Below are positions 1,010-39,411 of a stretch of DNA of 50,983 nt, piece by piece. The stretch covers positions 1-50,983 of the forward strand of contig JABIQT010000051.1 in NCBI GenBank assembly GCA_018667995.1, given 5' to 3'. The DNA comes from Candidatus Latescibacterota bacterium. GTDB taxonomy: Bacteria; JAAXHH01; JABIQT01. The position numbers and the translations under genes are program-made. The notes below the pieces were generated by a model. That model was not told where the DNA came from and did not search any database. It saw nothing but the letters and a program-made list of their open reading frames with translations. Within the stretch, counting starts at the first letter, position 1. The number at the start of each line of letters is the position of its first letter.

Positions 1010-1016
1010 CCAGTCA

Positions 1017-10492: not shown

Positions 10493-11434
10493 TTACTGAT
10501 AACCGAGCCTTTTCAGATCGTTCTCACGTTTGCGCCAGGTGGGCAAAACTTTTACCCACAGATCCAGATAGACTGGTCGCCCAAGGAAAGTCTCTATACT
10601 GACTTTGGCACCAGTCCCGATTCTCTTGAGGGTGTGCCCCTTACTACCGATAATAATCCCCTTCTGCGAAGTCTTTTCCACCACTATTGTCGCGTGGATA
10701 TAGGTCTTTCCGTTCTCTCTATCTTTGAAATCATCTACAGTCACAGCACAGGCATAGGGAAGTTCATCGTGTAGTGTCGTGAATATGTGCTCGCGAACGA
10801 TCTCACCTACAAAGAACCGTTCCGGCTGATCAGTAAGCGTATCTGGCGGATACATCGGATGTGCGATTGGGAGACGTTCCGTCACGGCTTTAAGGAGTTC
10901 GTCAAGACCATCGTTGTTCAATGCAGAAATCGGAATGAGCTCTGCAAACTGAAAGCGTTGACAGGCCTTCTCTATAAGGGGCAGCACCCGTTCCTTATTG
11001 ATCCTGTCTATCTTGTTGATAGCCAGAATGACGGGACCGGAACTGCCCTTTATGTGGCCGATAATGTCTCGATCAAGGTCACGAAGCGCTCGTGAGGCAT
11101 CGACCATTGCTATCGTTACATCCGACTCATGAATAGTCCGTACTGCAGACCGCTGCATGAATTCCTGAAGCTTGTACTCCGGCTCCAACAGCCCAGGGGT
11201 ATCCATGAATACGATCTGCAAACCCGGTTCAGAGAGAATGCCCAGGATCCGTTGACGTGTCGTCTGAGGTTTTGCCGTGACGATGGATAATTGCTCACCG
11301 AGGAGCGCATTCATCAACGTTGATTTGCCGACATTCGGCCGCCCGACTATCGACACATATCCCGTTCGCCAATCATCGGATACCGCCGGCAGAATTGGTG
11401 CTGTCTCAGTGTCATCGCTACACATATTTACCAC
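10493..11434 (-). CDS. era: GTPase Era
   Basis: G1 GRPNVGKST, G3 DTPG, G4 NKID, and a C-terminal KH domain (IVVEKTSQKGIIIGSKG). Confidence 0.9.
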   Translation of the reverse strand: MVNMCSDDTETAPILPAVSDDWRTGYVSIVGRPNVGKSTLMNALLGEQLSIVTAKPQTTRQRILGILSEPGLQIVFMDTPGLLEPEYKLQEFMQRSAVRTIHESDVTIAMVDASRALRDLDRDIIGHIKGSSGPVILAINKIDRINKERVLPLIEKACQRFQFAELIPISALNNDGLDELLKAVTERLPIAHPMYPPDTLTDQPERFFVGEIVREHIFTTLHDELPYACAVTVDDFKDRENGKTYIHATIVVEKTSQKGIIIGSKGHTLKRIGTGAKVSIETFLGRPVYLDLWVKVLPTWRKRENDLKRLGYQ

Positions 11435-11587: not shown

Positions 11588-12199
11588 ATGTTTATGATTT
11601 CATTTCGGGAACGGGTGGTACTTCGAGGCTATCACTGGTGGCGACGATGGCGGCGACGGGAAATGGTCGGATTTCCGGAAGCTCTTCAGGAAACAGACCG
11701 CCTGTTCATCTGTCTGCCGGCTGATCATGATCAAGCCAAGAATGCTGCTCTGATAATTCCTCAGCTGATAGACTGTCTGAAAGCCCGGTCCATTACAATA
11801 GCATGCACGACGGATTCAATGGATTTCTGCTCAGAATTCGGCTCTACTGTCCGCGTGGTGGACATCCGTGCCGATAACCGACGATGGAGTGGTCTGGCTA
11901 ATTCAGCACTGGTGGAAAAGATCAGAAGCGAGGGACCGAACGTTGCTATCGACCTAAACCCCCGTTTAGACGTAATGTGCGCAGTACTTTGTCTACAAAG
12001 TGGAGCCGAACTTCGTCTCAGCTTTCAAGGCAACGAACGTGCCACCTTCTTCAATGTGCAGATAGCGGTGCCACCAGAATCGCAGGATCTATCTTCTGAG
12101 CCCATAGCGGCAAAACTGACCCCCTATGAGCGATTCCTGAATACGGTGCGAGGAATGATGGGGCAATCAAGCGATACAGACCCCACGAAATTGAAGTGA
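11588..12199 (+). CDS. Hypothetical protein (203 aa)
   Basis: ORF in an otherwise empty interval with a promoter-like element upstream. I recognise no family. The N-terminus is Arg/Trp-rich (HWWRRWRRRE) and the start is uncertain. Confidence 0.4.
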   Translation: MFMISFRERVVLRGYHWWRRWRRREMVGFPEALQETDRLFICLPADHDQAKNAALIIPQLIDCLKARSITIACTTDSMDFCSEFGSTVRVVDIRADNRRWSGLANSALVEKIRSEGPNVAIDLNPRLDVMCAVLCLQSGAELRLSFQGNERATFFNVQIAVPPESQDLSSEPIAAKLTPYERFLNTVRGMMGQSSDTDPTKLK

Positions 12200-12241: not shown

Positions 12242-12270
12242 TTGACAGCCCCAATATTCCCCTCGATATT
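12242..12270 (+). promoter_or_regulatory. Candidate sigma-70-type promoter for the GWxTD array (TTGACA-17 nt-GATATT)
   Basis: Exact TTGACA at 12242-12247, a 17-nt spacer and GATATT at 12265-12270, about 130 nt upstream of the first paralogue. Confidence 0.35.
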
Positions 12271-12398: not shown

Positions 12399-14936
12399 AT
12401 GTATGCCAGAACTCACACCTTTCATCGGGAACGCTGCCCTTGCATCTTGCCAATACTGTTCTTGATACTGGTGATCATTCCGGCTAATCAGGTATTGGGG
12501 CAAACCACCGATCCATTCCAGGTTTTGATTGATCGTGGCCAGCGTCTCTTAGCGCAAGATGACTCCGATGGGGCAAAAACTGTACTGATTGAAGCCGTTT
12601 CCCTCAAGCCGAAATCAGCTTCGGCCAATTATTGGCTCGCCATGGCCTATTACGCCCAGGGAGATAACGGTAAGGCCGAGAAGTACTTCAAGGAGACCAT
12701 CCGAAGAGATCGAACTTTGGCTGATGCATACGTGGGTTTGGGACGGACCTATATGCGGATGAAGAATCGCATGATAGATGCCAGACAGACCATGAAAGAG
12801 GCCCTCAAGCACAATCCCGACAACGCGCAGGTTTATTACTACCTCGGCCTATCATACCTTGAACAGAGTCGCCGTGACCCAGCGGCGCCACTCTATGTGA
12901 TGCAGGGGCGCCATGCGTTTCAGCAGGCCGCGGCACGTGACACGCAGCATCCAGACGCCTATTACCAACTGGCACTTTCGTTCGAATACCCGTCGCGGGA
13001 CTATAACCGTGCCATGTCTATTTTCTACAAACAACTGTCGGTGAACCCAGGCCACCGGGATGCCCTCTCGCATCTTGGAAAATGCAGTTTTCTTACTAAG
13101 CAGTACCGAGTAGGACTCGACCTGCTCAACCAACTGAAGGACATACACGGTGACGCGCTGCCTACCTACTCTAATGTCCTTATAGCGCAACTTGAGGCAT
13201 CTCTTCTACAGGACGAGAGGGAATACGAAAAGGCGGCCAAACTCTATGAATCTTTCATCTACGGCCTGGATGCCCGGGAAAGGCCACTCTACACAGACCT
13301 GAGATATGTGGCCACGCCACAGGAGATAGCGGATTATGTGAGCGCGGATGATGCAACTCAGAAAGAGGTAGTCAGGAAATTCTGGGCATCGCGGGATCCC
13401 GATCCAGCCACGGTAGTTAACGAACGGCTGGTCGAGCACTACCGACGTGTTACGCATGCACGGGAGTACTTCTCCAGGGGGCAACAACCTTGGGACCGAC
13501 GTGGCGATATCTACATCAGATATGGAGAACCCGATGACTTGCAGCACTTTCTCCTTCGTGCAGGCGAGTCAGTCCAGGCGGTTTTTCGACCCACTGGCAA
13601 CGCGTCAATCGACGCTATTCGCGAGCGCAACCATTTGATGCGATACCGCCTCAAGGTTGACAACGGAGGATCTCCATGGGGGAACCTGGTCAACCGAAAA
13701 ATGGTCGATCCGGATGGTGATGCCCGGTCCGATGCTCAATCGGCCGTACCGGATATGGCGCAATTCTTCAGTCGTGCGGGCAACGAAACCCAGGGACTCG
13801 TCTTTGTTTCCGAAAGCTGGGTCTACGTAGCACACGATCTTGAGCTGTTCTTTGTGGATCAACTGGGAAAGGGCAAATTCGACTATCCTCTTGGGATACA
13901 TGAAACTGAGATCGAAGAGTCCAGTATACAGAGCCGATTCCATCCGCAGAAGATGGCCGAGAGGCTGATTCGCACGAACCCCGAGTCCTATCAATTTGAT
14001 TATGGCGGGCAACCGCTGGATTATCTCTACGACCTGGTCACCTACCGCGGAATTGAAGGTGAAACCGTTCTCGAGTTCGCTTATTCCGTACCCGCCTGGC
14101 AGTTGGGGTCCGTCTCCGATGGCCAGGGCTTGAAGACCTGGTTTGACAGTCATCTGGTTCTCAGCGATCATGACTTTAATAGAGCCGCAAACAGATCAAC
14201 CAGGATCGGACCTCTTGAGCGACCACTCACCGCAGGAAAAACGAAAGCACTTGGCGTAGATCTGCATACGGCCATTGTCTCACTCAAAGTGCCGCCCGGC
14301 GACTACAATTCAGCAGTAGAAGTCAGGGATGAAGCTACGCGACGAATTGGTATTTTTCAGCAATCCCTGCATGTGCCAGATTACTCCGCGACCGAACTCG
14401 CTCTGAGTGATATCCGACTCGCAAGTAGCATTGTGCCCGCGGACAATGTAGGACCGTTTGTCAGAAATGGACTGCACATTGAACCCAATCCGGCCCGGAT
14501 ATTTCAGAATTCAGAGCCAGTCAGCTTCTATTACGAGATATATAATCTGAAGAAAGATGTCACGGGACAGTCAAGATACCGGACGGAACTTGAAGTGTCC
14601 ACTCGTGAACAAAGCGGTAATATCGTCTGGCGATTTCTTTCCGAGCTGGGAAACCTGATCAGAAGATCGGACGACCGCGAGTCGGTCTCAATGCTCTTTG
14701 AGGACGAAGGCGAGTCCTCCAGCGAGTTTAAATACACATCCATCGATACGGGCGATACCAGCTCTGGACGGTACGTGTTGACCTTGACAGTTACCGATTT
14801 GAGCACCGACCGTTCTACATCGAAATCCAGGGAATTTGTGGTAACTAACGACCGCCAAAAGTGGTATGAGGAACAGCCCGGCAAGGCATTGGATATCCGT
14901 GTTATCAAGGACAAGGAGCCTGAGGGCTCTCCTTAA
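12399..14936 (+). CDS. Secreted TPR-repeat + GWxTD-like domain protein, paralogue 1
   Basis: GGAGG lies 7 nt before the ATG at 12399 (the track starts at TTG 12393). Hydrophobic signal (ILPILFLILVIIPANQVLG), TPR repeats (YWLAMAYYAQGDNGKAEKYFKE...). Conserved block FWASRDPDPATVVNERLVEHYRRV...PWDRRGDIYIRYGEPDD, then ESWVYV..LELFFVDQ and FYYEIYNL. Confidence 0.8.
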   Translation: MYARTHTFHRERCPCILPILFLILVIIPANQVLGQTTDPFQVLIDRGQRLLAQDDSDGAKTVLIEAVSLKPKSASANYWLAMAYYAQGDNGKAEKYFKETIRRDRTLADAYVGLGRTYMRMKNRMIDARQTMKEALKHNPDNAQVYYYLGLSYLEQSRRDPAAPLYVMQGRHAFQQAAARDTQHPDAYYQLALSFEYPSRDYNRAMSIFYKQLSVNPGHRDALSHLGKCSFLTKQYRVGLDLLNQLKDIHGDALPTYSNVLIAQLEASLLQDEREYEKAAKLYESFIYGLDARERPLYTDLRYVATPQEIADYVSADDATQKEVVRKFWASRDPDPATVVNERLVEHYRRVTHAREYFSRGQQPWDRRGDIYIRYGEPDDLQHFLLRAGESVQAVFRPTGNASIDAIRERNHLMRYRLKVDNGGSPWGNLVNRKMVDPDGDARSDAQSAVPDMAQFFSRAGNETQGLVFVSESWVYVAHDLELFFVDQLGKGKFDYPLGIHETEIEESSIQSRFHPQKMAERLIRTNPESYQFDYGGQPLDYLYDLVTYRGIEGETVLEFAYSVPAWQLGSVSDGQGLKTWFDSHLVLSDHDFNRAANRSTRIGPLERPLTAGKTKALGVDLHTAIVSLKVPPGDYNSAVEVRDEATRRIGIFQQSLHVPDYSATELALSDIRLASSIVPADNVGPFVRNGLHIEPNPARIFQNSEPVSFYYEIYNLKKDVTGQSRYRTELEVSTREQSGNIVWRFLSELGNLIRRSDDRESVSMLFEDEGESSSEFKYTSIDTGDTSSGRYVLTLTVTDLSTDRSTSKSREFVVTNDRQKWYEEQPGKALDIRVIKDKEPEGSP

Positions 14937-14952
14937 ACGAAATCAGACTAAG

Positions 14953-17346
14953 ATGATACAATCCTACTCCATACGTGCGTTCGTGGTTGCACTGGTCTAC
15001 CTGGCCAGTATTCTGTCGATAGCCGCCCAACAGCCAGAAGTGTCGATCAAACGGGGCAAGACCCTCTTTGAGGACGGCCAATTCGAAGATGCATCGGCTG
15101 TCTTCCGAATGATCATTGAACAGGATTCAAAACGAATAACACCCCATTACTGGCTTGGGTTGTCTCTTCACGCCCAAGGTGAAAGTAAAGAAGCGGTCAA
15201 AAGTCTTAAAAAGGCCGTGAAACTGGACCGGGACTTCGTAGACGCCCATGTGGTGCTAGCGCAAATCTATCTCGGGATGGACAAGAAGAAAGATGCGCGA
15301 AAGTCGGCTGAAAAGGCCATAAAAGCCAATCCTGAAACAGCGAACGCGCATTACTACCTGGCGCTCGCACGCGACGAGAACGTCAAGTTGGCCGAGCTTC
15401 GGCGAGGGAAAGTAAAGAAAGTATTCGAGAATCAGTATTGGCCTCTCAAGAAGGCCATATCGCTTGACCCACAGCATACCGATGCCCACTACCGAATCGG
15501 CCGTCTGTACATTAAGCTCATGAAAGATCCTGATAGTGCCATCCCCTTCTTCGTGGAACAGGCCTCCATTAACCCCGAGCATACGGAAGCTCTGCTCGCT
15601 CTTGCTGACGCAAGCATAGCAACGGAACGATTTCAAGAGGGCGTCGAACATTTCCAGAAGCTGGCGGAACTGCACGGTGGTAAGACACACCCACTCGTGG
15701 TAGGCCTATCGGCTCAGCTGGACTCCTATGTCTATCTTGGACTTCGGCGCGAGCCAGAGGCACTGAAGGCGCTGGAGGCGTACCTGATTGTCATAAAGGA
15801 CCATGATCCCGAAGCATTTAGACGATACCGAGATATCTCTCTCGTGGCTGAACCGGATATCGTGAAAAAATACGGTCAGCTCACGGATGATGAGAAAGAG
15901 GCAACATGGCGTCAATTTTGGGCCGTTCGGGATCCGGATCCTACGACGGCTGTAAACGAGCGTCTTTCGGAGCATTACCGACGGGTCATGTTCGCGTTAC
16001 GGAATTTCTCCGATGGCAAAGAGCCATGGGATACCCGTGGAGAGATCTATATTCGATATGGCGAACCTGATGATCGTCAGTCGTTCGTTTTCCGCACTGG
16101 ATCCAACGTTATGGAAAACTATATGCCCTCGGGCGACTCTCAGGTTGATGCCGTTCGTGAAACCAACCGTTACCAGTATCAGTTGCAGGTTTCGAATGGG
16201 GCTTCTCCCTGGTCCGAGGATTCCGGTGGCTTTGATAGCTTTCTTGCCCGATCAAGCAATGAGACACGGGCAAACGCTTTTGCCACAGAGAGCTGGGTTT
16301 ATGTACCTTACAATCTTGAGCTGTTCTTCACGGATCAGATGAACGATGGTTCGTATGATTACCCACTCCTTCCTACCCAATTACCCTCGGTACCGGGGAG
16401 CTCCGGATTCGCCAGGAGTCCTGGTTTCCGATTCATGTCCACGCCCAAACAACGGGTAGCCTCCCTGATTAAGCAAAAACCTGAGGCCTACGATTTTGAC
16501 TACGGTGGCGACCCCCTCAATTTCGTATACGATCTCGCTGCATTCAGGGGCAATGACGATCAGACCGAGGTCGAGGTCGCTTTCAGCGTACCTACAGATC
16601 AAATGGGTATTGCCTCCGATGGCAGTGGGATGGAAACATGGTTCGCTTCCCGGGTAGCCCTTCAAGACGCAGGTCGAAATTATGTGGCAGGTTCACAAGC
16701 CCTGGCCGGTCCGGTCGCCCGTCCCATGAGCAGACCTGGTAAGGACCGAGTAGAACTCAGGACTGCGGGATTCTCGTTTACGGCGCCAGCGGGGACATAC
16801 AGGTCCGCCCTTGCAGTAAAGGACTCCACGACAAAGCGCATTGGGATTTTTCTGCGGCCGTTTACCGTGAAGGACTTTAGTGGAGCGAACCTCCACGTTA
16901 GCGATATAAAGCTCGCCGCAGCTATTTCAGAATCCGCCGATCCGGGGCCTTTCTCGCGAAACGGACTCCGGATCATTCCCCATCCAGTGCATATCTTCGC
17001 GGTAGCCCAACCCATCTATATTTACTTTGAGCTCTACAATCTGACTCAGAACGGCAGTGGTCAAACTGAATTCGATACCGGCTTGACCATTGCCGCTAAA
17101 GAAGAACAGCGCAATTTTGCCTGGCAGCTTCTGACGGATATCGGCCGTCTCGTCACACGATCTTCAAACGACCAGGCCGTCGATCTTGCCTATGAGGATG
17201 GAGGCCTGCTTACTGATGATTTCAGGCATACATCAATCGACACCTCGGATCTTCCGCCCGGACCGTACACGCTGACGCTGACGGTTACTGACAGGCAGAC
17301 TGGCGAAGCGGACATTAGCGAGACGGACTTCGTTATCGCAAAATAA
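14953..17346 (+). CDS. Secreted TPR-repeat + GWxTD-like domain protein, paralogue 2
   Basis: The start is set at ATG 14953 (MIQSYSIRAFVVALVYLASILSIAAQQ, a signal peptide). The track start 14866 would overlap paralogue 1. Block FWAVRDPDPTTAVNERLSEHYRRV...PWDTRGEIYIRYGEPDD. Confidence 0.8.
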   Translation: MIQSYSIRAFVVALVYLASILSIAAQQPEVSIKRGKTLFEDGQFEDASAVFRMIIEQDSKRITPHYWLGLSLHAQGESKEAVKSLKKAVKLDRDFVDAHVVLAQIYLGMDKKKDARKSAEKAIKANPETANAHYYLALARDENVKLAELRRGKVKKVFENQYWPLKKAISLDPQHTDAHYRIGRLYIKLMKDPDSAIPFFVEQASINPEHTEALLALADASIATERFQEGVEHFQKLAELHGGKTHPLVVGLSAQLDSYVYLGLRREPEALKALEAYLIVIKDHDPEAFRRYRDISLVAEPDIVKKYGQLTDDEKEATWRQFWAVRDPDPTTAVNERLSEHYRRVMFALRNFSDGKEPWDTRGEIYIRYGEPDDRQSFVFRTGSNVMENYMPSGDSQVDAVRETNRYQYQLQVSNGASPWSEDSGGFDSFLARSSNETRANAFATESWVYVPYNLELFFTDQMNDGSYDYPLLPTQLPSVPGSSGFARSPGFRFMSTPKQRVASLIKQKPEAYDFDYGGDPLNFVYDLAAFRGNDDQTEVEVAFSVPTDQMGIASDGSGMETWFASRVALQDAGRNYVAGSQALAGPVARPMSRPGKDRVELRTAGFSFTAPAGTYRSALAVKDSTTKRIGIFLRPFTVKDFSGANLHVSDIKLAAAISESADPGPFSRNGLRIIPHPVHIFAVAQPIYIYFELYNLTQNGSGQTEFDTGLTIAAKEEQRNFAWQLLTDIGRLVTRSSNDQAVDLAYEDGGLLTDDFRHTSIDTSDLPPGPYTLTLTVTDRQTGEADISETDFVIAK

Positions 17347-17377
17347 ATGTTATCCGAGTTTCATTCTGGATCGTATC

Positions 17378-19684
17378 ATGAATTCCGTTATGCCACATCT
17401 GCTACTGGCCAGCATTTGCGCCACGCTCGTCTTCCCCGCTTTTGCATCCGCCGTTTGGCGTCCTCAAAGCACCGATCCTCTAGCTTCAATCGAAACTGGC
17501 CAATCACATTACACTGAGCGCCGTTATAAGGAAGCTCAGGCTGCTTTCCAGGATGCTGTGAAATCGGCTCCGCAGTCGGCCAGAGCCCACTATTTACTTG
17601 GCATGGCCATGTATCAGCAGGACAAGAATGAGGACGCGCTTGGGCAATTTCAGCGAAGCATAAAGCTGGATCGAAAAATGGCCGGAGGACACGCCGGTGT
17701 TGGTCTGGTATTGCTTCGGAAGAAAAATAGGCGCCTTGACGCGCGTGTGGAGCTACGGCGGGCTGTAAAACTCGATCCAGACAATGCACAATTCCAGTAT
17801 TATCTGGGCCTATCTTATATCGGGCAGAATTCACTGGCAAAATCCCGCGGATACGGTGCCTACAAGGATGGGCAGCGATACTTCAAGCGGGCGATCGATC
17901 TCGATCCGCAACACCCCGACGCCTACTATCAGCTCGCCCGATCCTATGAATTTCCATCTCGCGAATATGAAAAGGCCATTCCCCTTTATTTTCGTCAGAT
18001 AGTGGTCAATCCAGATCATCCAGATGCACTCTCATTGCTGGGTTCGTGCTCGTTGGAAGCGGGTCTGTTTGACGAAGGATTGACTATGGTGGAGCAGCTG
18101 TCAGCCAGATTCGGCGAGGAAGGAATACCGGGCTTGGGGAAGGTACGAAACAAGCTCTCGGCTGCCGGGCTACTACAGTCGGACGATTTCGAAAAGTCCT
18201 TTGAGTCCTTCGAAGCCTATCTGGCCCGCCTCGAACCGAAAGAGCGGCACCTCTACCAAAATCTGGCGTTTCTAGACAACGATAGCCAGCGGTTAGATCT
18301 GGCGGTGTTTTCGGAGTCGGATAAAGAAGAACGGTGGCGCATATATTGGGCCTCCCGTGATCCGGACCCTTCGACGCAGGTGAACGAGAGACTTGTGGAA
18401 CACTACCGGCGGGTACTCTATTCCCGTACGCACTTTTCCAGGGGGCAACATCCATGGGATCGGCGTGGTGAGATCTATATCCGGTATGGAGAACCAGACG
18501 ATAGACGAAGAGTGTTCTTTGCAGATGGGAGCGTGCCTCCATTTCCTTCAGGCAACAATCGGGTTGACGTCGTTCGGTCGACCAATCCCTACCGGCTCAA
18601 CGTTGGTACTGGCGGCCTCTCAAGCGGCGTAGGAATCGCCTTCAAGACCGAGAGCTGGGTTTACGTGCCTTACGGCCTCGAACTGTTGTTTGTGGACCAG
18701 ATGGGCCGTGAAACGTATGAATTTCCGCTTCCTATGAATGAGTTTGGTAATCTAGCGTCGTACGGACCGAGGCAGTCCGCAAACAGGCTGGTAGACCGCG
18801 TTCCGGAAGACTATCGATTCGATTTCGGCGAAGGCCCTATTGATCTCGCAATCGATGTTGTCACCTTCAAGGACACGGACTCGCGCACCATGCTGGACAT
18901 AGCCTTTAGCGTTCCCAATGCCCAGCTAGGGCACGCCGGTGACGGGCATGGAATGACCTCCTGGCTAGATGGAAATGTCGTAGTGCGTGATCCGAATTAC
19001 CGACACGTGCTAAAGCTTGGCAAAGTTATAGGTCCTATTGAGCGTCCGCTCTCCGCCAGATCGTTCGATATCGCGTCCGAAACGTACCAGACTTCGCGAA
19101 TTGCTGCTTCCGTCGTTCCCGGCTCCTATCATTCGGCCCTCACAGTACGCGACAGGGCGACGGACCGCGTCGGTATCTACAAACTGCCGGTGGACGCTGT
19201 CAACTATACAAAGGATTCTCTCCAGCTCAGTGATATCAGACTCGCATCCTCCATTAAGCCAACGGCGGAATCGAGTACTTTTGTGCGCCATGGTCTGCAG
19301 ATAGTACCACACCCAGCTCGGACGTTCAGACGTGACAGACCTGTCTTTTTCTACTATGAGATCTATAATCTCATGCAGGGGGAATCGGGTGAAGCACATT
19401 ACCGTACCCAGCTGACTATCGCCGCCAACGACAAGACGAAAGGGTTTATAGGAAACATCCTCTCGACTATCGGCAGAGCTATTTCACGCAACGACGACAC
19501 CCAATCTGTCGTTGTTGTTGCGGAGGATGAAGCCTCGGGCCCTGATGCCTACCAGTACCAGTCTATAGAACTTGGAGATTCTCCCAGCGGAGTGTATACG
19601 CTGACGCTTGAAATCACCGATCTCGGCGGAATGGCCACGGCATCCAAATCGATAGACTTCACTGTGGCCCCGAGCGAGGATTAA
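17378..19684 (+). CDS. Secreted TPR-repeat + GWxTD-like domain protein, paralogue 3
   Basis: Signal peptide (HLLLASICATLVFPAFASA), TPRs, and YWASRDPDPSTQVNERLVEHYRRV...PWDRRGEIYIRYGEPDD. Confidence 0.8.
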   Translation: MNSVMPHLLLASICATLVFPAFASAVWRPQSTDPLASIETGQSHYTERRYKEAQAAFQDAVKSAPQSARAHYLLGMAMYQQDKNEDALGQFQRSIKLDRKMAGGHAGVGLVLLRKKNRRLDARVELRRAVKLDPDNAQFQYYLGLSYIGQNSLAKSRGYGAYKDGQRYFKRAIDLDPQHPDAYYQLARSYEFPSREYEKAIPLYFRQIVVNPDHPDALSLLGSCSLEAGLFDEGLTMVEQLSARFGEEGIPGLGKVRNKLSAAGLLQSDDFEKSFESFEAYLARLEPKERHLYQNLAFLDNDSQRLDLAVFSESDKEERWRIYWASRDPDPSTQVNERLVEHYRRVLYSRTHFSRGQHPWDRRGEIYIRYGEPDDRRRVFFADGSVPPFPSGNNRVDVVRSTNPYRLNVGTGGLSSGVGIAFKTESWVYVPYGLELLFVDQMGRETYEFPLPMNEFGNLASYGPRQSANRLVDRVPEDYRFDFGEGPIDLAIDVVTFKDTDSRTMLDIAFSVPNAQLGHAGDGHGMTSWLDGNVVVRDPNYRHVLKLGKVIGPIERPLSARSFDIASETYQTSRIAASVVPGSYHSALTVRDRATDRVGIYKLPVDAVNYTKDSLQLSDIRLASSIKPTAESSTFVRHGLQIVPHPARTFRRDRPVFFYYEIYNLMQGESGEAHYRTQLTIAANDKTKGFIGNILSTIGRAISRNDDTQSVVVVAEDEASGPDAYQYQSIELGDSPSGVYTLTLEITDLGGMATASKSIDFTVAPSED

Positions 19685-19693
19685 TAGGCGACT

Positions 19694-22003
19694 ATGAATA
19701 GATTCAGGTGTTGCACACATCTCATGGGTGCCTTCGTTTTGCTGGGTATTACAGTCAATGTTCTGGCACAGTCCTTGTCTTCGTCCGGATTCTCGGAACA
19801 AATGGCTGTTGGACAGGAACTGCATGATCAGGAACTCTACGTTGAGGCATGTGAGGCCTATGAAAGAGCCATAGCCCTGCATCCCAAATCCTCCCCTGCC
19901 CATGTATTTCTGGGTAGGGCTCAATACGAGCTGGACCTCAATCGCGAGGCTCTTAAATCGTTTGAGAAGGCCGTAAAGCTAGACAGTAGATCGGTTGATG
20001 CTCACATTGGCGTAGGTCGTGCGAACCTGAGACTTGAGCGGCAACGGCTGGACGCGCGGGAGGCATTTCGGCGAGCCGGGAGGATCGACCCAGAAAATGC
20101 GGACATCGAGGACTATCTGGGAATGACGTACGTTAGCACGTTTGGAAGACGGCGCGAGCACGGCATCGACGGCAGACCCCATTTCCGAAAGGCCATTGAA
20201 ATCGATCCGCAACATGGCCAGGCATACTTTCATCTCGGTTTGACCTACGAAGTATCGCCATCCAAGAACTACCGAGAGGCTATCCCGTATTTTTTCAACC
20301 AACTTCTGGTCTCGCCCGATCACGTCGAGGCACTCGAACATCTGGCGGGTTGCCTGATGCGCACAAGAAGATTCGATGAGGGGGCCGCCATGATGGATCA
20401 AATAGCGATGCTGCCCGGCTCCGAAGACAATGCAGGGCTTCAGTCCGTGCGTGCACAGATGTATGCGCTAGCTCTAAGCAACGTAAAGGACTTTGCTGAA
20501 GCCCATATAATGTATGAGGAGTTCGTTGATGGTCTTGGATCCGAGGAACAACCCCTCTACAAGGATCTGACTTTCGTAGCCTCTGTAGAAACCGCGCTAC
20601 TGTTTGAGGAGGCAGGAGAATTCGACAAATCGGAAATGTGGCGAAAATTCTGGGCTGCACGCGATCCGGATCCCTCGACGTTGGTCAACGAGCGCCTGGT
20701 AGAGCACTATCGTCGCGTTCTCTATGCACGAACCAACTTCGCGTCGGCTCAGTTTCCCTGGGATCAACGTGGAGCCATCTATGTTCGATTCGGAGAACCG
20801 GATAACCGTCAGAATGTGGCGCAGCCGTTTCCCACCAAAGATGCGAAAGTTGAGTCTATCCGCGAAGTCAATCGTCAATTGAGGTACACACCCGACGAGC
20901 GAGGTTTCACGGAGAGCTGGGTGTATGTGCCCTATGGTATCGAGCTATTTTTCTCCGATCGTTTCGGAAACGGTAAGTTTGAATTCCCACCACTCACGAC
21001 GGATCCGAGGGTAAATCGTTTCCACCCGAAAACAATTGCAACTGAGTTGATCACACAACAGCCGGAGGGATACTTTTACGACTATGGCGGAGCTCCACTC
21101 GAGTTCATATTTGACGCAGTGACTTATCGCGGTGAGAACGGCGATACAGAGGTCGAACTGGCCTACACCGTCCCCGCTCGTCAACTCGGCCACGTGTCGG
21201 ATGGTCAAGGGGAGCGCACCTGGTTCAAGAGTTTTGTGGTATTGAGAGATCAGGAACTTCGAAGGGTCACGGAGACAATGAGGAACATTGGGCCCGTGGA
21301 GCGTCCACCCACCGAAGTGCCCAAGAGAAGCGCCAAAACCGTCGTAAGGACGGCGTCACTCTCTTTGCCAGCGCCTCCGGGATCCTACCGTACCTCAGTC
21401 GGTATCCGAGATTCTATATCTCAGCGCATCGGCATTTACGAAACACCCCTAACCGTTTGGGATTACAGTAGTAATGACCTCAATCTAAGCGACATCAAAC
21501 TGGCATTGGGGGTCACGCCTCGGAGTGACGACGGAGCCTTTGTGCGTCACGGCCACAAGATCATACCCAATCCGTCACGGTTATTCCAGCGCTCCCAACC
21601 GGTTTTCTTTTACTATGAGATCTACAACCTCCCCATGGATTCCGATGGCCGCACCCGCTATCGTACCGATCTTGAAATCTCCATGAAAGAACAGAAGATG
21701 AACATAGTCTGGCGTATTCTCTCCGGATTCGGGCGTCTTGTTCGGAAGGAAGATGAAGATAGCAGGACCGTTTTGATATCATACGACGGAGAGGGTACTA
21801 AATCAGATGAATACCTCTACACGTCTGTAGATACTGGAGATTCCCCATCAGGCAAGTACACGGTACAGCTCACAATCACTGACCTTCTCACCGGACAGAC
21901 CATATCAAGAAGTAGAGATTTCATTATTGTCGACGACGGGAGAAGACCGGTGATCGAAGAGGAATCACAGGTTGAGATGAAAGCATTGAACAAAAGCAAG
22001 TGA
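19694..22003 (+). CDS. Secreted TPR-repeat + GWxTD-like domain protein, paralogue 4
   Basis: Signal peptide (LMGAFVLLGITVNVLAQS), TPRs, and FWAARDPDPSTLVNERLVEHYRRV...PWDQRGAIYVRFGEPDN. Confidence 0.8.
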   Translation: MNRFRCCTHLMGAFVLLGITVNVLAQSLSSSGFSEQMAVGQELHDQELYVEACEAYERAIALHPKSSPAHVFLGRAQYELDLNREALKSFEKAVKLDSRSVDAHIGVGRANLRLERQRLDAREAFRRAGRIDPENADIEDYLGMTYVSTFGRRREHGIDGRPHFRKAIEIDPQHGQAYFHLGLTYEVSPSKNYREAIPYFFNQLLVSPDHVEALEHLAGCLMRTRRFDEGAAMMDQIAMLPGSEDNAGLQSVRAQMYALALSNVKDFAEAHIMYEEFVDGLGSEEQPLYKDLTFVASVETALLFEEAGEFDKSEMWRKFWAARDPDPSTLVNERLVEHYRRVLYARTNFASAQFPWDQRGAIYVRFGEPDNRQNVAQPFPTKDAKVESIREVNRQLRYTPDERGFTESWVYVPYGIELFFSDRFGNGKFEFPPLTTDPRVNRFHPKTIATELITQQPEGYFYDYGGAPLEFIFDAVTYRGENGDTEVELAYTVPARQLGHVSDGQGERTWFKSFVVLRDQELRRVTETMRNIGPVERPPTEVPKRSAKTVVRTASLSLPAPPGSYRTSVGIRDSISQRIGIYETPLTVWDYSSNDLNLSDIKLALGVTPRSDDGAFVRHGHKIIPNPSRLFQRSQPVFFYYEIYNLPMDSDGRTRYRTDLEISMKEQKMNIVWRILSGFGRLVRKEDEDSRTVLISYDGEGTKSDEYLYTSVDTGDSPSGKYTVQLTITDLLTGQTISRSRDFIIVDDGRRPVIEEESQVEMKALNKSK

Positions 22004-22046
22004 GCACTACCTGAATGTCCGTCCACCAGCTACAGGTACGGCCAAT

Positions 22047-24287
22047 ATGCACAAAACATCCTGCTTCCTGTTTGCCCTTCTACTGCTCCAACCGCCGGCA
22101 TCCCCTGCACAGGAGAGCGCCAGCTCTCTTTACGACATGGGTACACGTCAATATGCCGAGGGAGACTATGAATCGGCCCTTAGTTCGTTCAAATCGGCCA
22201 TTCGCGTAGACAAGTCCCTGCAGGATGCCCACTATTGGCTTGGTATGAGCCTATATCAGATGAGTGACTACCCCGCGGCCAGGAAGGAATTCATAGATCT
22301 GGGGGGGCTTAGGTCAGCTGAGAGCCGTGTTTTAAGGGCTTTGGGAGCAGTCTACCTGAAAGAACGAAATCGGGCATTTGAGGCGCTTGATGTGCTGCAC
22401 CGGGCCACACAGATTAGCCCCCTTGATGCGGAAGCACACTATCTCACAGGTCTGGCGTATCTCACCCTCATGAGCCGCGGTCCCGTAGCAGAACATCCCT
22501 ACGTGGACAAAGCCAGGAACGCATTCAATCGGGCGCTCGAACTCTCTCCCCGGCACTTTGATGCCTCCTATCGACTCGGTAAACTATACGAGGGTGAATC
22601 GATTCAAAACCGCTACATCCCAAACAAGACAGATTCCTTTTACACTATGAGCTTGCCCTTCGAGGGTAAGGCGCTCAACGTGATGAGTGCCATGGCCGCC
22701 TTTGATAGACAGTTGAAAAGCAATCCCGCGCATGTGGAAGCGAGGCATGCCCTGGCCACACTGAACAGTCGATTGGGCAACCACGCTACTGCAATCAGGT
22801 CTCTAGAGGGGTTGGCCCGGGCTGAGCCGGATAACGTGGTGCGGCTCCTGGATCTTGGAATCGCCTATTGGCGCGCAAAGGAGTGGGTTCTGGCCGAAGA
22901 GATCTTTGAACGAGTGGTCCCCAAACTTCCTGAGAATGAGCAGGAAATCTATAGGGACTTTGGCACATTCGTGAACCGGAAGTCTGCTGCCGAATACGAC
23001 AAGGCCAATGAGAGTGATCAGGCCGTTCAATGGCGGGATTTCTTTGCGTTGAGGGACCCGGTACCGGTTACCGAGGTGAATGAGCGATTGATCGAACACT
23101 ACGGTCGTGTGGCGTACGCCCGCCAGTCCTTCACAAGCAAGGGCGTGTTTCCCTGGGATCGCCGTGGCGATATTGTAGTCAGATACGGCTTGCCTGACCA
23201 CGTGGAATTCGGTAGCGGAATCACCGAGAATATGGAGACGGGCTCCACGCCGCTCTCCATGCGAAACTGGGGTGAATCATGGGTATATGTCCACGTGCCA
23301 ATGACCTTGTATTTCGAGAATCGGCAATTTTCACGCCGCTACGACTTTCCGCCCATTTTTGCGGGCGACGGTATCAACTATGACCATCCCTATTTTGTGG
23401 CCAGACAGACCATCGAGAGGACGCCATCTCTGCACATACCCCGTGAACTTGGCGCGCCACTTGAAATCCACGTGGACCCTGTAGCGTTCAGGGATGCGAA
23501 CGGCGATGCAGTACTTGAGCTGGCCTATGGTGTTTCGCGGGAAGAAACAGGAATAACAGAGGCTGGAATGGTAGACCGAGCACTTGACCTCGGTGCGGTG
23601 CTTTATGGCCCCGAATGGGACCGCACCGTCGTAGATTCTACTTGGTCTCCTCTCTTCGTGGCCGGTAACGATAGAGGCACTATCTCAGCTATCGCCGTAC
23701 AGGAGCTTCGTGCCGATCCTGGTGCGTACTGGATGGCTGCGCAGGCACATGATAGACAATACGGGCTGTACGGCGTGTTGCGCGACTCGGTTGTAGTGCC
23801 TGATTTCTCCCGTGCCGGTGTCAAAATGAGTGGCATTCGTCTGGCTATTGAAATGGCTCGGGAGGTCGAGGATCGTGCCATTGATATGAAATTACCTGAC
23901 CGATTGGCCCCTAATCCTACCCGGTTATTTTACCGTGCAACTCCCTTGCATTTCTACTTTGAACTCTACGATCTATCCTTAGGCGAGGACAGCCTGGCGC
24001 GATTTCAGGTTCAAGTGAGTTTACACCCCAGTGAAGAATCCATGACAAGCCGCAATATAATCTGGCGGATGCTCTCCAGGGCCGAGACCATATTCAGACG
24101 TGCTCGCCAAAAACAGGTGGTAACATTCATGTTCGAGGAACGCAGTGAGTCACCCATGACCTCTTGGGTGTCAGCGATTGACACATCCGATCTGACCCTG
24201 GGCAACTACCGGCTCGAGGTCTTTGTGACAGATCTGACTAGTGGCGCGACCGTGTCACAGGGTCAGATGTTTCGGGTGGCGAAATGA
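22047..24287 (+). CDS. Secreted TPR-repeat + GWxTD-like domain protein, paralogue 5 (most divergent)
   Basis: Signal peptide (CFLFALLLLQPPASPAQE), TPRs, and FFALRDPVPVTEVNERLIEHYGRV...PWDRRGDIVVRYGLPDH. The C-terminal blocks are recognisable but diverged (HFYFELYDL). Confidence 0.75.
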   Translation: MHKTSCFLFALLLLQPPASPAQESASSLYDMGTRQYAEGDYESALSSFKSAIRVDKSLQDAHYWLGMSLYQMSDYPAARKEFIDLGGLRSAESRVLRALGAVYLKERNRAFEALDVLHRATQISPLDAEAHYLTGLAYLTLMSRGPVAEHPYVDKARNAFNRALELSPRHFDASYRLGKLYEGESIQNRYIPNKTDSFYTMSLPFEGKALNVMSAMAAFDRQLKSNPAHVEARHALATLNSRLGNHATAIRSLEGLARAEPDNVVRLLDLGIAYWRAKEWVLAEEIFERVVPKLPENEQEIYRDFGTFVNRKSAAEYDKANESDQAVQWRDFFALRDPVPVTEVNERLIEHYGRVAYARQSFTSKGVFPWDRRGDIVVRYGLPDHVEFGSGITENMETGSTPLSMRNWGESWVYVHVPMTLYFENRQFSRRYDFPPIFAGDGINYDHPYFVARQTIERTPSLHIPRELGAPLEIHVDPVAFRDANGDAVLELAYGVSREETGITEAGMVDRALDLGAVLYGPEWDRTVVDSTWSPLFVAGNDRGTISAIAVQELRADPGAYWMAAQAHDRQYGLYGVLRDSVVVPDFSRAGVKMSGIRLAIEMAREVEDRAIDMKLPDRLAPNPTRLFYRATPLHFYFELYDLSLGEDSLARFQVQVSLHPSEESMTSRNIIWRMLSRAETIFRRARQKQVVTFMFEERSESPMTSWVSAIDTSDLTLGNYRLEVFVTDLTSGATVSQGQMFRVAK

Positions 24288-26665
24288 CCCGGGCTGCCCA
24301 CTTGCTCATAGACATATGCCTACCAGTTGTCGGTAGTGCCGTCCTACTATTCACGGGTACTATCGTAATGGCCCAGGAACCACTGAGTGCCAGCATTGAC
24401 AATTATTTAGAGGCTGGCCGGGCCATGTATCTCTCAGAACGTTATTCTGAAGCCGAGATTCTCTTTCGCCAGGCGGTGAGCGAGGACGATGATTCAGCCG
24501 TAGGCAGATACTGGCTCGGTATGTCGCTTTACAAGCAAGACATGGACGACCAGGCTCTCAAACAGTTCCAACGAGCCACACGCATCGAAAGCGACTGGGC
24601 GCAGGGGTACCTCGGTGTGGGCCTGGTCTACTTGCGCAAGCCAAACCGAAAAATGGATGCCCGGGAAATGCTGCGAAGTGCTGCCAAACGGGCTCCCGAC
24701 GATGCACAGATTCAGTACTACCTCGGGATGACATTTGTCAGCGCCAACGGTCAGGGGCGGATTATCGGCGCTGACATGGATGGTCGGGACTACTTTCAAA
24801 AAGCGGTAGCCCTGAATGCTCAACACCCTGACGCGTACTACCAGTTGGGACTGTCTTCGGAATACCCGCTTCGGGAGTACGACCGAGCCCTCTTCTTCTA
24901 CTTCAAGCAGCTGACTGTGGCGCCGGCGCATGGTGAAGCGCTGACACGGCTGGGACACGTGACCTATATTCTGGGACGTCACAGGGAGGGGCTGGAGATG
25001 ATAGATCAGCTCATCGCTCTCCACGGATCTGATGCTGCAGATCGCTTCCATACCGTCAGAGCACAGATGGCGGCATCACATCTTCATAGTCAACAAGATT
25101 ACGCGGGCGCAGATATCCAATATCGAAACTATATCGGCGCTATCGGTGCGGGGGAACGTGCGTACTACGCGGATATCCAATTTGCGTCTCCCCCGGAAGT
25201 ATATCAGAGAATTCTAAATGCGGAGAGGGAGGAACGGGAGATACTCAATCGTAATTACTGGGCCTCACGGGATCCGAATCCAGCAACGGTAGTCAATGAG
25301 CGTTTACTAGAGCATTATAGACGCGTCATGTTCTCTCGAATTCACTTTTCCGCAGGCAAAGCCCCCTGGGATCGGCGAGGGGAGATGTATATCCGGTATG
25401 GGGATGCTGATGATAGACAGCGATTTCTGGGTGGATCAAATGAAGCAGATGCATTTATGTCGGGTGGCGGCGTCAATCTCAATTCAGTTCGAGAGCTAGG
25501 AGCTGGACCGAATGTGCCAGTCTCCGAGCATGATTTTATCATGCCGACCGGAAAGGCAGACGTGGACGCTGTGCGTGACCTGAACCGCGAGTTCCGATAT
25601 CGGCTGCGGGCACGCGGCGCTCATGCCACGGAAAGCTGGGTATATGTACGGCATGGCCTGGAGTTCTTCTTCGTAGACCAGCGTGGAAACGGCGAGTTCG
25701 ACTATCCTGATATTATGATGGATCCCACGGCTCTTGTCAGTTTGACGGGTGGTGCCCGCCAGGAACGTTTCCATCCTGAAACGGTAGCGGAGCTACTTAT
25801 CGCGAAAACCCCTGAGGATTACCGCCATGATTTTGGAGGTGACTTGCTTCAGTTCGTATTCGACACCGTAACGTTCCGAGGAGTAGGTGGAAAGACTGAC
25901 GTGGAGTTGACCTACAGTATTCCAAGCTGGCAATTTGGTTCCGTACAGGATGGAATGGGTCTGCGGACGTGGCTTCAAAATAGCGTAACGCTACGTGACG
26001 ATGACCTGACTCCGATAATTGCTCACGCCGAGCGTTTCGGTCCCATTGAACGGCCTACGAGGCCACAGGTGCGGCGAAATAACAACGTGGCACTCCATAG
26101 TGTCGCGGTCTCCTTTGAAGCGCCACCTGGCATTTTTGAAACAGGTGTCGAGCTACAGGACGAGGCCACACGACTTGTGGGCGTGTTCAAGAAGAGCACC
26201 GAGGTGTCCGACTACAGCGGCGACAGCCTGTTAGTGAGCGATCTAAAGCTCTCAAGCTTTATTGAGAAAGACGATGGCGCAGGACAGTTTGTACGTGGTG
26301 GATTCCAAATTGCCCCGAATCCGGGCCACCTATTCCAGCGCAATCAGCCTGTATATGTTTACTATGAGATATACAACCTGACGGTTGACGAGGTCGGTGA
26401 TACCCGATTTGAGACTATTTACGAGATTACACCCAAGGGGCGTATTATGAGAGACCGAGAGCAGCCATCAGAAATTGAAGACGATCCTATTCTTCTCATG
26501 TTTGAAGACGGGGGATCAACGCCGGTAGAAAAGCGGTATGCCGCCCTCGACACGAGCGATCTCCCCGAGGGCGAGTATGCCATGACTATGACGATGAGGG
26601 ATCTCGCCACGGGTCAGACTGTCTCCAAAGCTACAAGCTTTGTCATAATTGGAAACAGGGAGTAA
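24284..26665 (+). CDS. Secreted TPR-repeat + GWxTD-like domain protein, paralogue 6
   Basis: The start overlaps the stop of paralogue 5 (ATGA at 24284-24287). Hydrophobic N-terminus, TPRs, and YWASRDPNPATVVNERLLEHYRRV...PWDRRGEMYIRYGDADD. Confidence 0.8.
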   Translation: MTRAAHLLIDICLPVVGSAVLLFTGTIVMAQEPLSASIDNYLEAGRAMYLSERYSEAEILFRQAVSEDDDSAVGRYWLGMSLYKQDMDDQALKQFQRATRIESDWAQGYLGVGLVYLRKPNRKMDAREMLRSAAKRAPDDAQIQYYLGMTFVSANGQGRIIGADMDGRDYFQKAVALNAQHPDAYYQLGLSSEYPLREYDRALFFYFKQLTVAPAHGEALTRLGHVTYILGRHREGLEMIDQLIALHGSDAADRFHTVRAQMAASHLHSQQDYAGADIQYRNYIGAIGAGERAYYADIQFASPPEVYQRILNAEREEREILNRNYWASRDPNPATVVNERLLEHYRRVMFSRIHFSAGKAPWDRRGEMYIRYGDADDRQRFLGGSNEADAFMSGGGVNLNSVRELGAGPNVPVSEHDFIMPTGKADVDAVRDLNREFRYRLRARGAHATESWVYVRHGLEFFFVDQRGNGEFDYPDIMMDPTALVSLTGGARQERFHPETVAELLIAKTPEDYRHDFGGDLLQFVFDTVTFRGVGGKTDVELTYSIPSWQFGSVQDGMGLRTWLQNSVTLRDDDLTPIIAHAERFGPIERPTRPQVRRNNNVALHSVAVSFEAPPGIFETGVELQDEATRLVGVFKKSTEVSDYSGDSLLVSDLKLSSFIEKDDGAGQFVRGGFQIAPNPGHLFQRNQPVYVYYEIYNLTVDEVGDTRFETIYEITPKGRIMRDREQPSEIEDDPILLMFEDGGSTPVEKRYAALDTSDLPEGEYAMTMTMRDLATGQTVSKATSFVIIGNRE

Positions 26666-28500: not shown

Positions 28501-28505
28501 AGGTT

Positions 28506-29600: not shown

Positions 29601-29637
29601 GACCTAACTCCAGACGCACTGATTCCCGACTCCGTGT

Positions 29638-31449: not shown

Positions 31450-31482
31450 GTCTGCAGGCTTTCCCAGGCTATCTGCCTATAA

Positions 31483-31524: not shown

Positions 31525-31631
31525 GCTGTACGCGACACTCGTATTCGGGGCCTCCCGCTAGACGGTTGGCCGGTTTTCTGCATCGCAGACCCTTTCGGGC
31601 CCAAGCCGTTAAATGACTCGCATTTCTCCCT

Positions 31632-37938: not shown

Positions 37939-39411
37939 CTAAAAGACCGGTTTTTCTGGTGCCGGATCGGAAGGTCCCTGCAGGTTGAAGTTGCCGTTCC
38001 CGGGCCAGCGCATGGTGTAATCTTTGCTGCCATCGCGCCGATAACCGGCATTCCAGTATGTGCTCGCCGCCATCCATTCGAGGAGCGTCACTAACATTTG
38101 TGATTTGGTTTCCGAAGCGGCAGGCTCAGACCAGATATTCCAGAGTTCATCCGGATCTGTTTTCAGATCATATAACTCACCAGATTCCTGGCCGATATAG
38201 TATACGAGCTTGTGATCGGTTCCCCGCATCATGATCTGATAGTTATCCTCACAGAAAACATACTCCCGCGGAGAGGGAGCATTGGCCTGACTGGTGTCGG
38301 CGTATGACAGCAGCGACCGGCCTTCGAGGTAAGTAGGTACCGGAATTCCGACAGCTTCGAGTATCGTCGGTCCTACGTCCATAAGTGATACGAGGTCGTG
38401 TACTTGAGTCGTTCGATTACTGCAGTCAGGGTATCGGATCATCAGTGGGATGTGCGTGATCTGATCATACATGAGCCACTTATACGCCAATGAATGATCT
38501 CCCAGCATTTCACCGTGATCAGAACAGAAAATGACCATACTGTTTTCGAGATAACCTTTCTCGTCAAGTGCTGTCATGATCTCGCCTATCTTTTCGTCCA
38601 CCGTGGTGATCTTTGCGTAATAGTGCCTGCGCATACTCTCCACACGTTCATCGTTCGCGATGTACATGTCGATTCCCGACTCATGGCCGGCATCGGCGAA
38701 GACCTTCTTAAGAGCCTCGTGCTGTGGGGGTTTTTCCTTCAACTCGTTGGGACGGGTCGAAGGCATCGGTATATCTGCATCTTCATAGAGGTCAAGATGT
38801 CTGGGCAGGGGATCCCACGGTTCATGAGGCCCCGTAAAACCAATCTGAAGAAAAACGGGACGATCACCTTTGTGATTCCGAATCCAGTTGAGTGTCGAGT
38901 CACCTATGAAAACATCACTATGAAACCGCTCTTCGTGATGCCATGCGGAACCTTGTAGCTTTCCAGCCCAATCTGGATCGGTCTTGTTTCGATCGTTAGG
39001 TCGCTCGACGCCGTGGAACGACATATATCGTCCCCAGTCGTCATCAGAGCCGCCCGACGCCAGGTTCATATTCGTGGGATTCTCAACGATAATCCGCTCG
39101 TGGAATCCACCAGGTATATCGCGCGGTGTGAAGTGCATCTTACCCATATTGACGCACCAGTATCCATGGTCAGCTAGATCCTGAACCCATGTACGATGCC
39201 CATCCCAGTTATTGAAGCTGTAAACACCCGTAGTGTGCGGGTACATACCCGTGTATATTGCCGCGCGAGAGGCTACACACGTCGCCCCCGGGCAATACGC
39301 TTGACGAAAAGAAACACTTTCACCAACCAGTCTATCCAGCCCAGGGGTGACCATATGCGAATGCCCCCAGGCGCCGATGGTATCGAATCGCTGCTGATCG
39401 GTCATGATCAT
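37939..39411 (-). CDS. Sulfatase family protein (formylglycine-type), apparently cytoplasmic
   Basis: Starts MIMTDQQRFD, the family N-terminal metal-binding motif. Has a C-x-A-x-R maturation motif (TCVASRAAIYTG). The in-frame upstream sequence reaches a stop after 26 codons with no ATG/GTG/TTG, so there is no room for a signal peptide. Confidence 0.8.
   Translation of the reverse strand: MIMTDQQRFDTIGAWGHSHMVTPGLDRLVGESVSFRQAYCPGATCVASRAAIYTGMYPHTTGVYSFNNWDGHRTWVQDLADHGYWCVNMGKMHFTPRDIPGGFHERIIVENPTNMNLASGGSDDDWGRYMSFHGVERPNDRNKTDPDWAGKLQGSAWHHEERFHSDVFIGDSTLNWIRNHKGDRPVFLQIGFTGPHEPWDPLPRHLDLYEDADIPMPSTRPNELKEKPPQHEALKKVFADAGHESGIDMYIANDERVESMRRHYYAKITTVDEKIGEIMTALDEKGYLENSMVIFCSDHGEMLGDHSLAYKWLMYDQITHIPLMIRYPDCSNRTTQVHDLVSLMDVGPTILEAVGIPVPTYLEGRSLLSYADTSQANAPSPREYVFCEDNYQIMMRGTDHKLVYYIGQESGELYDLKTDPDELWNIWSEPAASETKSQMLVTLLEWMAASTYWNAGYRRDGSKDYTMRWPGNGNFNLQGPSDPAPEKPVF

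Follow-up and report, generated by a model that had tools for sequence, protein, structure and literature searches.

A tandem array of six GWxTD-family tetratricopeptide repeat proteins in a Candidatus Latescibacterota contig

The GWxTD family is catalogued as TIGR04514 in NCBIfam and as PF20094 in Pfam, and its models, which span 105–172 aa, share with the proteins described here a signature block of the form W..RDP.P....NE...EH..R ... W.(x)RG..Y...G.P. Periplasmic scaffold proteins built on tetratricopeptide repeats (TPRs), such as PrsT, PilW/PilF, MamA, Tgl, GltE, and the TPR regions of BcsC and PgaA, resemble them at the other end, in what looks like an N-terminal signal peptide followed by 6–7 TPR repeats. 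Two consecutive beta-sandwiches, as in RbmA, a biofilm matrix scaffold of Vibrio cholerae, and in transglutaminase barrels, VPS26, and arrestin, are a third point of likeness. These features meet in six tandem genes, G1–G6, on contig JABIQT010000051.1 of a Candidatus Latescibacterota bacterium (assembly GCA_018667995.1), whose 50,983 nucleotides are referred to below as the window. We are highly confident that the genes form an operon-like block of six old, intact paralogues of TPR-GWxTD-Ig-Ig architecture (Ig, immunoglobulin-like domain), with signal-peptide-like N-termini and located behind a conserved promoter.

The six-gene array

All six genes lie on the plus strand, in the order G1 (12399..14936; 845 aa), G2 (14953..17346, counted from its ATG start; 797 aa), G3 (17378..19684; 768 aa), G4 (19694..22003; 769 aa), G5 (22047..24287; 746 aa), and G6 (24284..26665; 793 aa). 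The longest open reading frame (ORF) of G2 begins further upstream, at 14866; G4 is the copy chosen for modelling, G5 is the most divergent copy, and the start codon of G6 overlaps the G5 stop by 4 nt. These six consecutive products of 746–845 aa have a common architecture, each with a signal-peptide-like N-terminus, around 260 aa of TPR, a GWxTD domain of around 175 aa, and two Ig-like beta-sandwiches. With ATG starts, the successive intergenic gaps are +16, +31, +9, +43, and −4 nt, the same values as the original prediction, made from the sequence alone, had given for the range.

The TIGR04514 model is passed by all six proteins, with 68.3, 67.6, 53.0, 53.5, 40.1, and 48.6 bits for G1 to G6 against a curated cut-off of 28 bits, and the matched part lies at about aa 290–410. 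With PF20094 (gathering threshold of 26.9 bits) G1 passes at 35.9 bits, G2 falls just below at 26.4, G4 reaches 16.9, and G3, G5, and G6 are unreported at E ≤ 0.01. The literal GWxTD(RG) motif is not present in any of the six, all of which have PWD(R/T/Q)RG, a form that is one residue shorter than GWxTDRG and in which Pro replaces Gly. Among 286 surveyed homologs with a detectable motif, the short xWDxRG form was found in 275 and the longer GWxT(D/K)RG form in three, two of them with the literal GWxTDRG. PWDxRG is best described as a motif variant inside a GWxTD family defined by hidden Markov models, and it is the form that this clade carries. The GWxTD identity originally proposed for the conserved block holds for TIGR04514 in all six copies, whereas PF20094 passes in G1 only and the literal motif is replaced by PWDxRG.

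The TPR repeats, likewise predicted before any profile search, were recovered in every copy by several Pfam models above their gathering scores (TPR_19, TPR_16, TPR_11, TPR_2, and others), within aa ~30–300. Existing database names agree in part: NCBI calls G1 a 'GWxTD domain-containing protein' and both G3 and G4 a 'tetratricopeptide repeat protein', and several array proteins or homologs already carry the label 'GWxTD domain-containing protein' in NCBI and JGI. Each N-terminus has a basic n-region, a hydrophobic core (best 12-residue Kyte–Doolittle mean of 2.0–3.6), and AxA-like sites followed by Q; no lipobox was seen by eye in any of them. PADLOC defence models gave only weak generic TPR matches (E ≥ 1e-4), in two copies, on which ground an anti-phage defence role was rejected, and mobile-element models gave no match for the array proteins.

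Over their full length the six proteins are 25–40% identical in pairwise comparison, with G5 as the outlier (25–29% versus the others), and the likeness of their DNA is limited to motif blocks, with 62–82% identity over 20–155 nt. The multiple alignment contains about 80 invariant columns. All of the motif blocks on which the original description relied are present in it, namely (F/Y)(W/F)AxRDPxPxTxVNERLxEHYxRV, then PWDxRGxxxxR(Y/F)GxxD, and further on ESWVY, F(F/T/S/E)(D/N), (Y/F)Y(Y/F)E(I/L)Y(N/D)L, and GxYx(L/V/M)x(L/V/M)x(V/I/M)xD. The reading frames are all intact (internal stops in none of the six) and every invariant residue is kept, so no copy shows the disrupted frame of a pseudogene. 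The level of protein identity, together with DNA likeness confined to the motif blocks, indicates that the copies are old duplicates and not the product of a recent amplification or of gene conversion.

The contrary view, that the array was amplified recently or consists of decaying redundant copies that have no individual function, can draw on the tandem arrangement alone. It is so improbable as to be negligible, given the divergence of the paralogues, the six undamaged frames with their full complement of invariant residues, and the closer ortholog that each copy has, in the same order, in other metagenome-assembled genomes (MAGs). The age of the duplicates, already suspected at the outset, is borne out in particular by that last comparison: the orthologs in another MAG are 42–70% identical, closer than the neighbours within the array, and their order is kept.

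Promoter, orthologous loci, and the conserved block

A sigma-70-type promoter element, TTGACA-N17-GATATT, lies at 12242..12270 on the plus strand, ~130 nt upstream of the G1 start codon. Each of 24 fetched loci, which represent 23 distinct places, has the exact 12-base element once, on the plus strand in every case and just before the first family gene; about 0.2 chance matches would be expected in ~3 Mb according to our estimate. The spacer and the flanks of the element vary among the loci. Within the region alone, promoter-like sites are at chance level (14 counted versus 12.5 expected), and it is the exact conservation across genomes that marks the element as real. Its occurrence before the first gene in 23 other loci gives strong comparative support to a genuine promoter at the position first proposed for it. 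A regulatory RNA in the 5' untranslated region was also considered and rejected, as Rfam gave no match anywhere in the window.

The family to which the array belongs is large. A profile of the module formed by the GWxTD and Ig-like domains (~490 aa) matched 10,145 clusters at 50% identity with E ≤ 1e-3, 5,176 with E ≤ 1e-10, and 1,161 with E ≤ 1e-30. In almost all of the 150 best matches the module is C-terminal, behind N-terminal extensions of 0–900 aa, and in seven long members with Pfam matches in that part the extension is TPR. In one locus (L076, 1877–4575) two adjacent genes encode the TPR part (354 aa) and the GWxTD-Ig-Ig part (511 aa) separately; the split may be natural, or it may stem from a frameshift, the contig having low coverage (2x). 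Relatives are encoded in 227 stretches of species-representative genomes; 74 loci, labelled Latescibacterota, Gemmatimonadota, Zixibacteria, or without phylum, were kept. Tandem copies recur among them. The survey of copy number and synteny showed the pair to be the commonest state, with three to five copies in several loci and additional dispersed copies on some chromosomes.

A Tara Oceans MAG contig (L001/L026) has the full set of six genes, one-to-one and in unchanged order, and its orthologs of G1 to G6 are 58, 45, 42, 50, 45, and 54% identical to them. Five of these genes are in tandem, and the sixth stands 4.8 kb further on. The intervening segment (5200–9950 of L026) encodes an AHJR-like restriction endonuclease-fold protein, an AMP-binding enzyme, a PemK/MazF toxin, and a truncated aldo-keto reductase, and looks like a secondary insertion into the array. 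In the closest relative (L025), orthologs of G1, G3, G4, and G6 are present, with identities of 67, 57, 70, and 65%. In the widespread pair, the first gene is the counterpart of G1 (~50% identity in the L003 group) and the second that of G2 (~42%). Since orthologs in the same order are closer to each other than the paralogues are, the duplications are older than the species splits and each copy has been kept, and such gene-for-gene retention argues for non-redundant roles of the six proteins.

The array is also part of a conserved block, in the order orf203, array, and convergent sulfatase. The first member, an orphan gene of 203 aa on the plus strand (orf203, 11588..12199), stands directly upstream of G1, with the promoter between the two, and its product shows no signal peptide or transmembrane segment by eye. 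Homologs occupy the same position and strand in 26 loci. The orf203 family comprises 61 clusters only, all of them hypothetical proteins from the same clade, and orf203 itself gave no Pfam, NCBIfam, or PDB match, profile searches included. One of nine homologs matches DUF6913 weakly (E = 0.007), and an hhalign comparison gave a weak in-register match (probability of 17.8%) to the N-terminal half of a GT9 glycosyltransferase, which we treat as a lead only.

The sulfatase (37939..39411, minus strand; 490 aa; Sulfatase and SGSH_C domains by Pfam) faces the array convergently. In 16 loci its orthologs, 68–73% identical, follow directly after the last family gene, also in convergent orientation, and in this window a further gene cluster (26686–37800) intervenes. 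The protein starts directly with the catalytic domain, with no N-terminal extension that could hold a signal peptide, and it has C-V-A-S-R where sulfatases usually have C/S-x-P-x-R. These features suggest a cytoplasmic enzyme, possibly matured by an anaerobic-type maturase. At 70% G1 identity the loci with the conserved block collapse to about six lineages, about three of which have the sulfatase neighbour, and the outer flanks of the block differ among lineages.

Additional hints come from other family members. Two of these, P0125 and P0214, end in an FGE-sulfatase domain, and for one of the two, gene calling confirmed a single gene. Their domain order is TPR, GWxTD, Ig, Ig, and FGE-sulfatase, and P0125 (L081, 6001–9690) adds a PEGA domain; the next genes after P0125 encode a DUF5683 protein and a weak match to Tricorn_N. 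Phosphodiest genes follow one relative. Taken together with the sulfatase neighbour, the fusions and the Phosphodiest neighbours may be weak links to sulfate metabolism. Related phyla have been described as sulfatase-rich polymer degraders (PMC7081726, PMC4454575), and a nearby sulfatase is for this reason weak evidence on its own.

Predicted domains and possible functions

An AlphaFold2 model of the C-terminal module of G4 (aa 285–769), built with 66 homologs, reached a mean per-residue confidence (pLDDT) of 89.1 and a predicted TM-score (pTM) of 0.82; for the GWxTD domain alone (aa 265–464) the pLDDT was 91.5. The predicted GWxTD domain (aa 285–460; 20546..21073, plus strand) consists of five helices and a small sheet and is the most conserved part of the protein, with 37 of its 176 positions invariant among the six copies and a mean pairwise identity of 43%; the TPR region, where conservation is lowest among the folded parts, has 30%. 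Nine residues (E, R, E, H, R, D, R, G, and G) are the same in all 66 homologs, whose identity goes down to ~25%, and W, Y, R, N, P, E, and others are nearly invariant; Arg accounts for three invariant and three near-invariant positions. Foldseek found no significant match for the isolated domain model in PDB (best E = 1.0) or BFVD (best E = 0.8). The GWxTD domain thus has a fold predicted with high confidence that is, as modelled, without a Foldseek relative in these two databases.

According to the model secondary structure, the GWxTD domain is followed in G4 by two beta-sandwiches resembling Ig or fibronectin type III domains (aa 469–590 and 599–750; 21098..21943, plus strand). With the whole C-terminal model, Foldseek against PDB returned only generic tandem-sandwich proteins, namely RbmA (E = 4e-9, TM-score of 0.38), C-terminal barrels of transglutaminases, VPS26, and arrestin. 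In the PDB sequence-profile search the full-length profile found only TPR proteins and the C-terminal module nothing below E = 0.2. The last ~315 aa of each copy gave only sub-threshold PKD, E-set, and Big matches in Pfam. A transglutaminase-like identity was rejected, because there is no invariant Cys, and so no Cys-His-Asp triad, and the GWxTD-only model matches no transglutaminase; the transglutaminase matches of the whole C-terminal model (TM-score ~0.18, root mean square deviation (rmsd) ~20 Å) fit a likeness limited to the beta-barrels. A segment NIxWRxLSxxGRLxRRxDD (~aa 665–690 of G4; ~21690–21760 of the window) sits inside the second sandwich, is conserved in G1–G5 and missing in G6, and has a pLDDT below 50. 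It may form an amphipathic helix or serve in binding.

The reading that we tentatively favour is that G1–G6 are co-expressed periplasmic or surface scaffolds, whose GWxTD module binds a common, probably anionic, glycan while their divergent TPRs engage different partners or each other. All six genes would share a transcript, and their products would be carried out to the periplasm or the surface of a diderm bacterium, to form there a scaffold or adaptor set in which no member is redundant. The unit of GWxTD and Ig-like domains would bind one ligand common to all six, probably an anionic envelope or extracellular glycan, possibly a sulfated one; this module is the most conserved part and carries the invariant Glu, His, Asp, and Arg and several near-invariant Trp/Tyr. 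The TPR domains, which are far more divergent, would recruit different protein partners, or they may bind one another. G1 and G2 would represent the ancestral pair, and G3–G6 a lineage-specific expansion kept gene for gene. The export-like signals, the RbmA-like tandem sandwiches, the contrast in conservation between the GWxTD and TPR parts, the gene-for-gene orthology, the conserved promoter, the lack of matches to the defence and mobile-element models, and the housekeeping and envelope genes beside distant relatives count in favour of this reading, as do the weak links to sulfate metabolism. The neighbours of distant family members are housekeeping or envelope genes with no common theme.

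The strict conservation of the GWxTD domain may also be read in terms of catalysis. In that case exported enzymes of a new family would have GWxTD as their catalytic domain; they might be, e.g., hydrolases, lyases, or esterases whose substrate is an anionic or sulfated polysaccharide or else an envelope polymer, and the six proteins would be isoenzymes with differing substrates, as in the expanded degradative sets of polysaccharide feeders. Seven of the nine residues invariant across the homologs are charged, and they stand in the most conserved part of the protein; moreover, Latescibacteria and their relatives are rich in sulfatases and predicted to degrade polymers (PMC4454575, PMC7081726), and the FGE-sulfatase fusions and the sulfatase and Phosphodiest neighbours point the same way. 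However, no likeness to an enzyme of known fold or family emerged from the PDB profile searches or from Foldseek with PDB and BFVD, degradative enzymes that are secreted do not usually have long TPR arrays, and the genes conserved beside the array include no transporter, glycoside hydrolase, or regulator. Differing specificities would, in addition, predict variation in the active site, yet the motif blocks are identical in all six. We regard an enzymatic function, the main rival to the scaffold reading, as possible but doubtful.

The tandem Ig/FnIII-like domains, in turn, might be the stalks of surface adhesins, or of 'eukaryote-like' TPR proteins, that attach to particles, algae, or animal hosts such as sponges, with the array providing different binding specificities. 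This is an unlikely explanation, in spite of the resemblance of the sandwiches to the biofilm matrix protein RbmA. Several of the related loci come from MAGs with isolate names suggesting a sponge origin (an indication based on names only; others are from Tara Oceans), and repeat proteins have been discussed as host-interaction factors in related sponge-associated phyla (PMC7081726). Nevertheless, the family is widespread in MAGs from groundwater, sediment, and the open ocean, a C-terminal Pfam search found no cell-wall, outer-membrane, or type IX secretion system (T9SS) anchoring signal, and the core pair, like its promoter, gives the impression of a housekeeping feature. Rapid diversification is not apparent either, with orthologs 42–70% identical.

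T9SSs are common in the superphylum of Fibrobacteres, Chlorobi, and Bacteroidetes (FCB), and the typical C-terminal sorting domain (CTD) of their cargo has ~80–100 aa. Could the last beta-sandwich (PNP ... GxY ... K) be such a domain, and the array proteins T9SS cargo? A PNP motif and a GxYxLxLxV strand are visible by eye in this domain and recall T9SS CTDs, and the organism belongs to the FCB superphylum (PMC4454575). The domain is, however, longer than a typical CTD, at ~150 aa with a conserved insertion, and the same module occurs in more than 5,000 clusters. At E ≤ 10, the C-terminal ~315 aa of the six copies gave no match with Por_Secre_tail or any other T9SS model, NCBIfam gave none, and the window contains no T9SS gene. 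We therefore consider the array proteins very unlikely to be T9SS cargo.

Several points weigh against the scaffold and ligand-binding set favoured here. No known fold in PDB or BFVD matches the GWxTD domain, and its seven invariant charged residues would suit an active or metal site equally well. Co-transcription of the six genes is deduced from the short gaps and from the lack of convincing internal terminators in the array, and hetero-oligomer formation is likewise a deduction. The N-termini fit Sec signal peptides by a simple heuristic only. The sulfatase appears to be cytoplasmic, is encoded on the opposite strand, and belongs to a sulfatase-rich clade (PMC7081726), and its neighbourhood with the array covers only about three independent lineages. 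Finally, searches of a literature collection for GWxTD, TIGR04514, and PF20094 returned no papers, in line with the original remark that no described role was known for a six-member array.

A wider proposal would take the GWxTD domain as a new fold for the recognition or processing of periplasmic glycans that are sulfated or anionic in some other way, so that the arrays, the sulfatase, the FGE fusions, and orf203 would together make up an unrecognised glycan-handling system of Latescibacterota/Gemmatimonadota-like bacteria. We put this forward as a speculation that is unlikely to hold. If the weak link to the sulfatase and FGE domains were true, it would hint at an additional, new player in the turnover of sulfated polysaccharides by marine and sponge-associated bacteria; otherwise, the GWxTD family would still be a good target for structural genomics.

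Neighbouring genes and comparison with known systems

The ~11 kb between the array and the sulfatase (26686–37800, minus strand) are occupied by a cluster that resembles those for lasso peptides, a class of ribosomally synthesised and post-translationally modified peptides (RiPPs). It encodes two ATP-binding cassette exporters (26686–28566 and 29638–31449), an NTP_transf_5 protein (28506–29600), and two Asn-synthase-like putative cyclases (31920–33908 and 35459–37399), as well as, by eye, a PqqD-like ORF of 106 aa (33957–34277) and an ORF of 147 aa resembling a lasso B2 peptidase (34991–35434), all on the minus strand. Three small paralogous ORFs on the same strand (31632–31859, 34633–34794, and 37565–37723), with (L/Y)(I/R/Y)RYGR(I/L)xNVTL(T/Q)SSY in common, are candidate precursors, although their cores are without the usual Asp/Glu at position 7–9. 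The orthologous loci lack this cluster and have the sulfatase directly behind the array; relative to them the cluster is an insertion, and its absence there was the reason for rejecting a link between cluster and array.

On the other side of the array, upstream of orf203, lie genes for a sigma-54 response regulator (9089–10483) and the Era GTPase (10493–11434), the latter being syntenic in the Tara Oceans contig (L001), in the closest relative (L025), and in a further locus (L002). At the window edge (107–3539 region) there is a DUF58 (+VWA_2) gene, typical of MoxR/Bat-type operons, and then an LptD_2 outer-membrane protein gene on the opposite strand.

Among the described systems named at the beginning, RbmA and the other tandem-sandwich proteins have only their generic topology in common with the array model. 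The TM-scores are 0.2–0.38, with an rmsd of 11–21 Å and sequence identity of 7–12%, and the isolated GWxTD domain matches neither RbmA nor transglutaminases, VPS26, or arrestin in Foldseek. The periplasmic TPR scaffolds come closer in the N-terminal half, as they provide the best non-GWxTD NCBIfam matches of the array proteins, but all of these families score far below their cut-offs: MamA gives 44–80 bits versus a cut-off of 200, and PrsT (TIGR02917, the TPR lipoprotein of XrtA/PEP-CTERM systems) gives 34.6–73.8 versus 312.2, in the TPR region only. Unlike the array proteins, none of the named scaffolds has a GWxTD or Ig-like C-terminal module, and none of their machinery genes adjoins the array.

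The nearest known system is the GWxTD family itself. That the array proteins belong to a catalogued and annotated GWxTD/TPR family was already known, and the present work is in this respect a description and not a new mechanism. What is new is the domain model without a fold relative, the PWDxRG subfamily, the conserved unit of ~490 aa, the gene-for-gene conservation of the array, its conserved promoter, and the orf203-array-sulfatase block. The family is large (more than 5,000 clusters at E ≤ 1e-10), occurs in mostly uncultured phyla, and has no solved structure. The array of this marine Latescibacteria member offers a clean case for it, with six co-oriented, apparently non-redundant paralogues, a conserved promoter, a defined block, a confident model, and a short list of invariant residues. 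Compared with the family models of 105–172 aa, the array has a larger conserved unit, in which the GWxTD domain is joined to two Ig-like domains, and it adds an N-terminal TPR array and tandem multiplication.

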